Source of the DNA: Eledone cirrhosa
Taxonomy: Eukaryota
Assembly (NCBI GenBank): GCA_964016885.1
Contig: OZ024742.1
Location: forward strand, 71,920,001 to 71,984,000
Length of the DNA stretch: 64,000 bases
Direction: 5' to 3'
Shown: positions 25,265 to 63,262 of the stretch, piece by piece
Layout: each line of letters starts with the position of its first letter
How positions within the stretch are numbered: the first letter of the stretch is position 1
Position numbers and translations under genes: made by a program
Notes under the pieces: generated by a model
Told to the model about the DNA's origin: nothing
The model's input: the letters and a program-made list of their open reading frames with translations, nothing else
The model's database searches: none

Positions 25265-26013
25265 GGCACTACCATGCTATTAGCTGTCAGAAGTGAAAGT
25301 TTTGTCAACATTCTCAATCGTAAACATCGTTTATTTCCGTATTACCACGCGTTATTTTAATAAAGCATATCAATGTAAGTGGAGTTACTTAAATGAAAAT
25401 ATAGGTGGCCCTTAAAAGGGCCAAATTAGAAAACAAGTCATGGTTATCAAATATTTAATCATTTATATTTTCATAGTCATGGTTATCAATGTAGAAAACA
25501 AGTCATTTTCACCAACAGTGGAATTACTTCTGACAGCTAATACCATGAACTTAAATGAATTTTCACCAACAGTGGAGTTACTTCTGACAGCTAATACCAT
25601 GAACTATATTTTCATAGTCATGGTTATCAATGCAGAAAACAAGTCATTTTCACCAACAGTGGAGTTAACTTAAATGAAAATATAGGTGGCCCTTAAAAGG
25701 GCCAAATTAGAAAACAAATATATGGTTATCAATTTTTTTCACCAACCCTATACATGAAATTGATAACCATGACTATGAAAATATAAATGATTAAATCCAA
25801 TTTATTTGATAACCATAACTTGTTTTCTAATTAACTTAAATTTGTTTTCTAATTTGGCCCTTTTAAGGGCCACCTATATTTTCATTTAAGTAACTCCACT
25901 TACATTGATGTGCTTTATTAAAATAACGCGTGGTAATACGGAAATAAACGATGTTTACGATTGAGAAGGTTGACGAAACTTTCACTTCTGACAGCTAATA
26001 GCATGGTAGTGCC
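25265..26013. mobile_element. Merlin-type non-autonomous element (MITE), GGCACTAC family
   Basis: Long TIRs GGCACTACCATGCTATTAGCTGTCAGAAGTG..; 8-bp TSD AAAAAAGT at 25257-25264 and 26014-26021; the GGNRM terminus plus 8-bp TSD fits Merlin. Confidence 0.8.
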
Positions 26014-26317
26014 AAAAAAGTTAATCTACTTGTAAATATGAGTATTTTGTCATAAATGTAAGATTATACATAAATTTCTCAGTGAATTTTTTTTTTTTTT
26101 TTTTCTTTTGGCAGACGTTAAGAATTAACATGAAGAAATTGAAGGTCTTTTGCTATTTAATACTCTCATTGTGGCACACTTTTGTTCTTTATTGTAGTCT
26201 GATAAACATAAACTGCAATAGTTAAGTCTTCCTTCCAGTATGTTTGCTTGTGAACTTTTAAAAGATTGTTACTGCTAAATGATTCGCCACATATTTCAGT
26301 TAAAAAGTTTTTCTCTA

Positions 26318-26671
<354 letters not shown>

Positions 26672-27007
26672 TTAAGTCAGTAATAGAAAGAAAACATTTC
26701 CCAAAAATATGTGATTTTTCTCCAGTGTGACTACGTATGTGGCTAACAAGATGAGAATTTTGAATGAAAGTTTTCCCACATATTTCACAATGAAACTGTT
26801 TTTCTCCGGTGTGTATTCTTTTGTTCTTAAGTTACCGTTAGAGACAAATGATTTCGTACATATTTCACAGCTAAAAGATTTTTCTCCACAATGTATTTTT
26901 TTGTGTTTCGTTAAATGTCCGTTACAGGCAAAATCTTTCCCACATATATCACAATGATTGGGCTTTTCTCCTGTGCGACTACGTTTGTGAACTACAAGTC
27001 GAGAATT

Positions 27008-28046
27008 GGCGATATCCAATTTTAGCGGCCTAAATGCCGCTTACTTGCTGTAGTTGCTGCTTACTTCAATGTATGAGGCTATTCCAACAAATTTACATTC
27101 CCTTTTTTTTAGCCGTTAAAAGAAATATAGATTTATTTATTGTTTTTTTTTTGTGATTTATTTGCCACTGGGGCATAGATTTATTTATTTGCCACGTTTT
27201 TGTTTGTTTTTTTTTTTTTTTTGCGATTTATTAGCCTTTTGGGGTCACACACACCCCCGTAGAAAGTGTGCGACCTTTCTGCCAGGGAGCACAGAGAGAG
27301 GAGGGTGCTCCCTTCTTCTCTTACCTGTACAAACCATTTGTTGGCCGGCGACATATCCCCACAGTTTCCTCGTTCTTTCATACTTATCCTCTTCAACTAC
27401 ACATGGATATTTGTCTTACTGTGGAGAAGGAATTAGAAACAGTTTTATCAAAATTCACTGCTATTCGGGAACATACAAAGCGAACTTTGGGTGACATACC
27501 AACTTCTGTTGATAATATAAGGAAAGCAATCAGTGAAGGTATTTATTACATTTTGATTGCATTTTTATTACAACCACTAATACTTACTATTATACCGAGG
27601 GGCCCTGCCCGTTCGGGAAAGGCTCTACAGACACGGATTCCGAGACGGAAACCCCTTGGAAAAGAAATGTCCCAGATGCGTTTGCAACGAGGAAACTGTG
27701 GGGATATGTCGCCGGCCAACAAATGGTTTGTACAGGTAAGAGAAGAAGGGAGCACCCTCCTCTCTCTGTGCTCCCTGGCAGAAAGGTCGCACACTTTCTA
27801 CGGGGATGTGTGTGACCCCAAAAGGCTAATAAATCGCAAAAAACAAACAAACAAAAACGTGGCAAATAAAGAAATCTATGCCCCAGTGGCAAATAAATCG
27901 CAAAAAAAAAACCAATAAATAAATCTATATTTCTTTTAACGGCTAAAAAAAAGGAATGTAAATTTGTTGGAATAGCCTCATACATTGAAGTAAGCAGCAA
28001 CTACAGCAAGTAAGCGGCATTTAGGCCGCTAAAATTGGATATCGCC
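27008..28046. mobile_element. Merlin-type MITE with ~365-bp TIRs and captured cargo
   Basis: Arms 27008-27374 and 27686-28046 are near-perfect inverted copies starting GGCGATATCC; 8-bp TSD CGAGAATT at 27000-27007 and 28047-28054. Confidence 0.88.
27403..27538 (+). pseudogene. RMND5: Captured first coding exon resembling RMND5 (GID/CTLH E3 ligase subunit)
   Basis: ATG-initiated MDICLTVEKELETVLSKFTAIREHTKRTLGDIPTSVDNIRKAISE followed by a phase-1 donor GAAG|GTATTT; resembles the RMND5A N-terminus MDQCVTVERELEKVLHKF as recalled from memory. Confidence 0.72.
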
Positions 28047-28320
28047 CGAGAATTTTTAACAAAATGTTTCCTACACATTTCACAATGGACCCATGTGTAA
28101 TGATTCTTGTTCAGTACCTGTTTCACTACGTAAATGTTTCTCATCACTCTCTGTCTGTGTAACTGTATGTATATGTGTAAAATCAGGTGTGTTAGATGTG
28201 TCTAAGTGATTGACGCACTCCATATTTTTGAAGAGTTCTTAAAAGTTGACAAAAATCTGATTATAATCTATCTTGTCTCAGATTACATGAGTAGAAAATA
28301 TACATTATAGATATATTTTC

Positions 28321-62948: not shown

Positions 62949-63262
62949 GGCACTACAACGCTATTAGCTGTCATATTTGTTGGTGAAAAAAAATTTGATT
63001 ATAAAACTTAAATTTGTTTTCTATTTTGGCCCTTTTAAGGGCCACCTATATTTTCATTTAAGTAACTCCACTTACATCGATATGCTTTATAACCATGACT
63101 TGTTTTCTAATTTGGCCCTTTTAAGTCTTCCCTATCTCTCTCAAAAAACCGCGTGAAAACTCCACTTACGCGTGGTGGTAATACGGAAATAAACGATGTT
63201 GACGAGTGACGTCACCTTCACCTGTTTTCCACTGGACTGACAGCTAATAGCGTTGTAGTGCC
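62949..63262. mobile_element. GGCACTAC Merlin-type MITE, short rearranged copy
   Basis: 25-bp TIRs GGCACTACAACGCTATTAGCTGTCA; internal modules shared with 25265-26013; no TSD between its own ends. Confidence 0.75.

Follow-up and report, generated by a model that had tools for sequence, protein, structure and literature searches.

The 1039-bp element at positions 27008-28046 of the 64,000-nucleotide stretch of Eledone cirrhosa DNA that we analyzed (the window) is a short, transposase-less deletion derivative of a young Merlin family that carries the first coding exon of RMND5, fused to the 3' end of a LINE. Host sequence with an identifiable parent lies between the terminal inverted repeats (TIRs) and is flanked by a target site duplication (TSD), as in Pack-type elements, and the TIRs are long, variable in length and recruited from internal sequence, as in foldback elements. 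The route of capture and any regulatory effect of the cargo can be argued in conditional terms: we consider reasonably probable an account in which a young Merlin would have received an RMND5 cassette delivered by a LINE, copied it from arm to arm, and now carries it as a likely neutral passenger. An earlier note had described the element and its RMND5 cargo, both of which stand; it had not picked up the parents that carry a transposase, the cargo of LINE origin, or the repeated mirroring of the arms.

Layout of the element and source of its exon

The element ends in GGCGA...TCGCC and is bounded by a perfect 8-bp TSD (CGAGAATT, 27000-27007 and 28047-28054), as the earlier note had recognized. 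Its arms are 96.7% identical over 368 aligned columns, with 311 bp between them. The TIR of ~365 bp that had been claimed is thus real as a length of inverted sequence, but only ~120 bp of each arm is Merlin's own; the rest of each arm, about two-thirds of that length, derives from a LINE 3' end, as do the last ~100 bp of the interior. The parts are as follows.

26230-28143 (approximate bounds), minus strand: decayed C2H2 zinc-finger array, with frameshifts and stops, split by the element
27000-27007, plus strand: left TSD, 8 bp, CGAGAATT, from comparison of the flanks
27008-27128, plus strand: Merlin-own left end, a true TIR of ~95 bp and subterminal sequence mirrored from the right end, based on the 95-bp TIR of short copies L130-L133 and the ends of parent L118
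27129-27374, minus strand: LINE 3' end with its tail repeats, mirrored into the left arm; LINE copy L116 matches 27233-27334 at 88% identity
27372-27402, plus strand: last 31 nt of the RMND5 5' leader (~165 nt in the parents), from alignment with the host
27403-27538, plus strand: copy of the RMND5 first coding exon, with ATG, 45 codons and 1 nt; 7 residues unlike the host
27539-27586, plus strand: GT donor and first 48 nt of RMND5 intron 1 (85 nt in older copies)
27587-27827, plus strand: internally deleted 3' end of an L1/Tx1-type LINE, comprising ORF2 (zf-RVT region) and 3' UTR, 80-87% identical to L116
27828-27926, plus strand: LINE tail repeats, terminating in ATAAATCT (27919-27926), a weak candidate for a duplication of the cassette's insertion site
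27927-28046, plus strand: Merlin-own right end and TIR, from the short copies and the ends of L118
28047-28054, plus strand: right TSD, 8 bp, from comparison of the flanks

The LINE-derived part of both arms also contains a strong donor-like word, CAGGTAAGA, at 27736-27744 on the plus strand and 27322-27330 on the minus strand.

From the ATG at 27403, 45 open codons and one extra base run up to the GT at 27539-27540. The host gene was located through its CTLH family, and 70 kb around it were used for alignment. Positions 27372-27586 are identical to the host (G000:C5:79536305-79536519) at 205 of 215 positions, spanning leader, exon, donor and 48 nt of intron, so the earlier proposal of an RMND5 exon 1 retained together with its donor and adjoining intron is borne out. 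The peptides of element and host agree at 38 of 45 residues. By itself, the 45-aa peptide finds no match in a word-indexed protein search, has RMND5A as its top PDB match (E=0.047), and yields 40 matches in a full HMMER search, the best of which equals the host's 45 residues exactly. The host exon that follows exon 1 matches human RMND5A in the PDB with an E value of 1.3e-12, and two CTLH exons lie farther downstream in the host gene. Judged by sequence, the source gene of the captured exon is RMND5.

The position of the donor is fixed by a contig of run X1, a run whose kind of sequencing is not on record, since this contig carries host exon 1 without differences and continues into the letters of exon 2 exactly there. 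Another X1 contig extends across 740 bp upstream of RMND5 exon 1 (L145:74-815), where a divergent transcript is possible. Older copies differ from the host in their version of intron 1 (L118 against host C5:79536520-79536556), being more SINE-like than the present host, and the cargo may preserve an older allele of this intron. An intronic SINE and the linkers between the zinc fingers would suggest an octopus host.

A young Merlin family and the mirroring of its arms

The earlier note gives GGNRM ends as characteristic of Merlin. The accessible part of PMC8101967 does not contain this word and gives a terminal GG, a TSD of 8 or 9 bp, and TIRs of 24-462 bp as Merlin features; in our family, the left ends of 44 of the 47 complete copies start with GG. 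The assignment to Merlin is supported by transposase-bearing parents (L064-L067, L118 and L121), which share their termini and 8-bp TSDs with the short copies. Because their transposase contains PF12762 (DDE_Tnp_IS1595; E=5.8e-12 and 46.3 bits on L066, with a cut-off of 27), an identity as MULE, hAT or P was rejected. Matches to the Merlin/IS1595 domain adjoin matches to the RMND5 junction. Relatives of the transposase number 110, nearly all with PF12762, and the nearest named ones come from snail (44-45%).

The least rearranged copy, L118 (C10, 2894 bp), is composed, in order, of a TIR of ~70 bp, the transposase, ~165 nt of RMND5 leader, exon 1, 85 nt of intron, ~700 nt of LINE 3' end, the tail repeats, and the TIR. 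Its junction between transposase and RMND5 was found by motif to be identical at 20 of 22 transposase-end loci, and alignments show the same junction at the two loci that the motif missed. A search for transposase ends lacking the cassette gave none at the 22 family loci, the weaker matches being short elements of a sister family. The transposase is open from start to stop in none of the 13 copies examined, which counts against our account; in L066 it is open through the putative DDE residues, with a frame shift in an A-run near the end. The copies, with their 8-bp TSDs, would have been spread by a Merlin transposase that works in trans on GG ends.

The interior of the element gave 551 first-look candidates; 40 were scored, and nearly all of these are 98-100% identical. 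The exact 27-nt junction between intron and element occurs 91 times on 13 contigs (0 in the control), including 25 inverted pairs within 4 kb, counted by eye, which leaves ~66 places, and the exact 23-nt terminus occurs 131 times. These counts confirm the mobile, multicopy family that had been anticipated, and its cargo proves to be RMND5 exon 1 plus the LINE 3' end. Both ends are in hand for 47 complete copies, which are not a random sample, 21 having come from the exon search. Their TSDs are perfect 8-bp repeats in 28 cases, have one mismatch in 9 and are worse in 10, and none extends to 9 bp; the whole exon is present twice in 21, once in 10, partially in 4, and not at all in 12. Since 60 exon copies (68 before the removal of overlaps) diverge from the majority by only 0.65% on average, the family must have spread recently.

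Single members show further events. At L067:1763-2380, one family member has inserted, with its own TSD, into the RMND5 exon of another, and at L072:1645-4675 the arms enclose 3 kb of inserted DNA in which a helicase-like frame was read by eye. L026 (C2) and L101 (C1), on different contigs, have a TSD in common (TTAACTTT) and possibly moved or were duplicated together with their flanks.

Most copies have a left end that mirrors their right arm. The TIR measures ~70-95 bp in the oldest and shortest copies and 367 bp in the window copy, and derived copies exceed the quoted 24-462 bp: the common 1.7-kb form has arms of ~790 bp at 98% identity, each with the exon, and L065 (3828 bp) is a whole palindrome with two transposases and an intact TSD. 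The mirrored sequence ends at points that vary among at least seven copies or types, lying inside the LINE piece in the window copy, in the RMND5 leader in the L014 type, L064 and L101, and inside the transposase in L066, L070 and L121. Fifteen variants are each shared by exactly two of 26 arms (13 copies), and 7 of them fall in both arms of one element, against an expectation of 1 in 25 for each (P ~8e-7), a pattern that, at the level of sequence, shows copying between the arms of one element. This homogenization is only partial, as the mean arm distance is 1.2% within elements and 1.5% between them. Break repair that is templated by the opposite arm and runs past the old TIR would extend the inverted repeat; from the pattern observed, we infer that this route would have produced arms of 0.37-1.9 kb with varied end points and would keep the two arms alike.

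The mirroring does not require the cargo, since an unrelated Merlin family, with ends GGCACTAC/GGCGCTAC, also forms long and whole-element palindromes with two mirrored transposase domains (L073:1752-5036, L074 and L075, on C28, C1 and C4 of G000). Short elements of this second family lie in the window at 25265-26013, from 28321, and at 62949-63262. The one at 25265-26013, 1 kb from the RMND5-carrying element, bears its own 8-bp TSD, for which reason a composite of the latter with neighboring GGCACTAC-type elements was rejected. Also observed was a sister family that lacks RMND5 (L125, L126, L134 and L176-L182; ends GGCGATCC/GGCGATAC; transposase at ~71%), whose arms include the transposase end. 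Several of its short copies may ride inside another repeat, since they share the TSD AAACCCTT and an identical flank.

In its GG ends, 8-bp TSD, DDE_Tnp_IS1595 transposase, and the short TIRs of its oldest copies, the family resembles the Merlin/IS1595 elements in the accessible part of PMC8101967, from which it departs in its derived arms of 0.8-1.9 kb (against quoted TIRs of 24-462 bp), in the host exon and LINE piece within these arms, and in one copy with two mirrored transposases. Galileo and other foldback elements, as far as PMC3573991 is available, likewise have TIRs lengthened by internal sequence, and repair from the other TIR has been proposed for them. Unlike Galileo, a member of the P superfamily with arms of its own sequence of up to 1.26 kb in that source, the Merlin family draws the recruited sequence from a host exon, from the end of a LINE and, in some copies, from the transposase.

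Entry of the cassette into Merlin

The LINE piece carries a zf-RVT domain (PF13966, E=3e-7 on parent L097) and gave 4289 first-look candidates at ~85%. In L116, a nearly full-length copy in which frames resembling an endonuclease and an RT were read by eye, the 3' end matches the tail of the cassette. Four observations speak for entry through RNA: RMND5 exon and LINE stand in the same sense; the LINE is 5' truncated with an intact 3' end, and the cassette ends at its tail; intron and LINE share a 5-nt word at their junction; and an 8- to 10-nt repeat (ATAAATCT) flanks the cassette, just before the host-derived part (within 1 nt) and at the end of the tail. In this scenario, a chimeric RNA would have been copied by LINE reverse transcription into the 3' region of Merlin, a step that seems to us somewhat probable. 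Such an RNA could stem from a template switch onto unspliced RMND5 RNA or from an RMND5 transcript that terminated in an intronic LINE lost since then. Other observations count against this route. The intron is kept, and its junction with the LINE is not at a splice site. The flanking repeat is weak, with a shuffle P of 0.13 in L118 and 0.03 in L119, and it is AT rich and partly LINE tail. No empty element was found: the empty-site pattern gave 75 matches with at most three mismatches, none with the transposase-side letters, and five that were examined are ordinary family members. The host RMND5 intron, finally, has no LINE at the place equivalent to the junction.

The earlier note had read the retained donor and intron as DNA-level capture of the kind known from Pack-MULEs, which is not established given that the cargo is fused in sense to a 5'-truncated, tailed LINE. 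Under that reading, the LINE would have entered Merlin first, and gap repair or fork switching would then have overwritten its 5' part with RMND5 DNA, the subsequent events being the same. Exon, donor and intron are indeed contiguous as in genomic DNA, the microhomology at the junction is equally compatible with repair, the family clearly tends toward template copying, and gap filling and FoSTeST are published routes (PMC8277862, in its accessible part). However, the sense orientation, the start within the leader and the candidate flanking repeat would then all be coincidences, and a LINE behind the transposase without RMND5 is absent among the 22 loci. By our own weighing, the RNA route fits slightly better: a chimeric LINE retro-insertion is the origin to which we lean, and DNA capture is a possible but rather doubtful one. 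Either way, where cargo is joined to the end of a LINE, a retained intron does not prove that it was captured from DNA.

The captured RMND5 stretch is covered by X1 contigs; contigs do not reveal where transcription starts, and a step in X1 depth near the captured 5' boundary was not taken for a start site.

An insertion of LINE origin would resemble the chimeras of mRNA and LINE-1 5' ends described in the part of 10.1101/2025.02.02.635956 at hand, in which a first exon precedes the LINE in sense within one insertion. Those human chimeras are mostly joined at splice sites, with a near full-length L1 and clear TSDs; here, the join lies 85 nt into the intron, the LINE measures ~700 nt, there is doubt about the TSD, and the insert went into a DNA transposon, by which it was then amplified.

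Insertion site and possible effects of the cargo

The window copy splits one finger of a minus-strand zinc-finger array, as the earlier note had seen; the array is already frameshifted, decay that is independent of the insertion because three of its seven linker spacings are not multiples of 3. The copy would have landed antisense in this decayed array, with the RMND5 exon on the plus strand and the fingers on the minus strand. With the exon antisense and the array frameshifted, neither a fusion with nor a knockout of a working gene is indicated, unless the frameshifts are assembly errors, and the fusion with the zinc-finger gene that had been considered is unsupported. More generally, the earlier note had suggested that a mobile cassette of ATG and donor makes fusion transcripts with target genes. 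ATG, frame and GT are intact in 52 of 60 exon copies, which the youth of the family would explain although the copies may still be used, and the host itself uses the donor. Apart from the antisense position in the window, the captured piece starts downstream of what is presumably an ETS-type core promoter word in host RMND5, and in two-exon copies the long arms would fold over the donor. Among the X1 matches listed, no loose end shows the element exon spliced elsewhere. We regard such a fusion cassette as very improbable.

The exon itself likely evolves neutrally, judging from its variants, which number 9 silent, 27 replacement and 3 stop among 60 copies and match the 22% silent expected without selection. 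All six fixed differences between element and host exon are replacements, whereas the protein of a relative equals the host's 45 residues exactly; zero silent changes among six is mildly odd (P 0.23 for one lineage).

Folded as RNA, the window copy pairs 357 of 367 left-arm bases with the right arm and leaves the exon in the loop, as had been proposed, although this is the minority form: the exon lies in both arms in 21 of the 47 complete copies and in one arm in 10. The RNA of a two-exon copy is predicted to form a duplex of ~790 bp containing dozens of 21-mers that match the host message perfectly, and inverted repeats of the RMND5 exon, of which the family has dispersed dozens, would form double-stranded RNA if transcribed. 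Palindromic copies might accordingly act as hairpin genes whose read-through RNA, through small RNAs or editing, regulates the host in trans, or the host sequence might shield the element. The two-exon form would lend itself to this: in L014, for instance, both arms contain the exon and show 98.4% complementarity along 791 bp, and the two strands hold 58 and 22 perfect 21-mers to host leader and exon. Yet the exon bears no signal of selection, the mirroring recurs in the unrelated Merlin family, and the 12 exon-less copies of 47 have spread too, so that we consider hairpin genes unlikely. Equally unlikely, in our judgment, is the bolder idea of a relay between transposon classes, from LINE reverse transcription through Merlin to TIR extension, making dispersed hairpins that would silence RMND5, a CTLH E3 ligase gene, via small RNAs or edited duplexes. 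Run X1 has contigs of element type across the exon, one of them through the donor into the intron. They were rejected as a sign of expression: copy-proportional background fits them, since the depth ratio of a neighboring SINE to the element (~22 in X1) resembles that in X2-X4 (18-20). Depth ratios of 75-124 in X2-X4 are not copy numbers.

Gene capture by TIR elements of animals is already known. Tan et al. 2021 (PMC8277862) report 370 animal Pack-TIRs, 87% of them hAT or Tc1/mariner, and the portions of the supplements available hold no Merlin entry, the word being confined to a column heading of Supplementary Data 2. Like those Pack-TIRs and Ssk-FB4 in the same source, our element holds a traceable piece of a host gene, transposed far from its parent; unlike them, the cargo sits inside a transposase-bearing element, is fused to a LINE, and occurs in both TIRs at 60+ places. 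GingerRoot elements, in the accessible part of PMC6839031, also are TIR elements with exon-plus-intron fragments, often acquired with loss of the transposase region, which here is kept beside the cargo. The literature searched, including the parts of PMC8101967 and PMC13282606 at hand and with subscription journals, Repbase and bioRxiv supplements outside its scope, contains no Merlin with host-gene cargo and no RMND5-carrying family. What is new is the Merlin case, with its LINE-fused, arm-copied cargo.

Merlin thereby joins the TIR superfamilies that carry host exons in animals, and it does so at high copy number and with the cargo in a transposase-bearing element. The six fixed letters that separate element from host exon make expression and small-RNA feedback directly testable. 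Intermediates within one genome, in which the cargo is seen becoming part of the TIR, mark a plain path by which a captured exon can turn into a host-gene inverted repeat.
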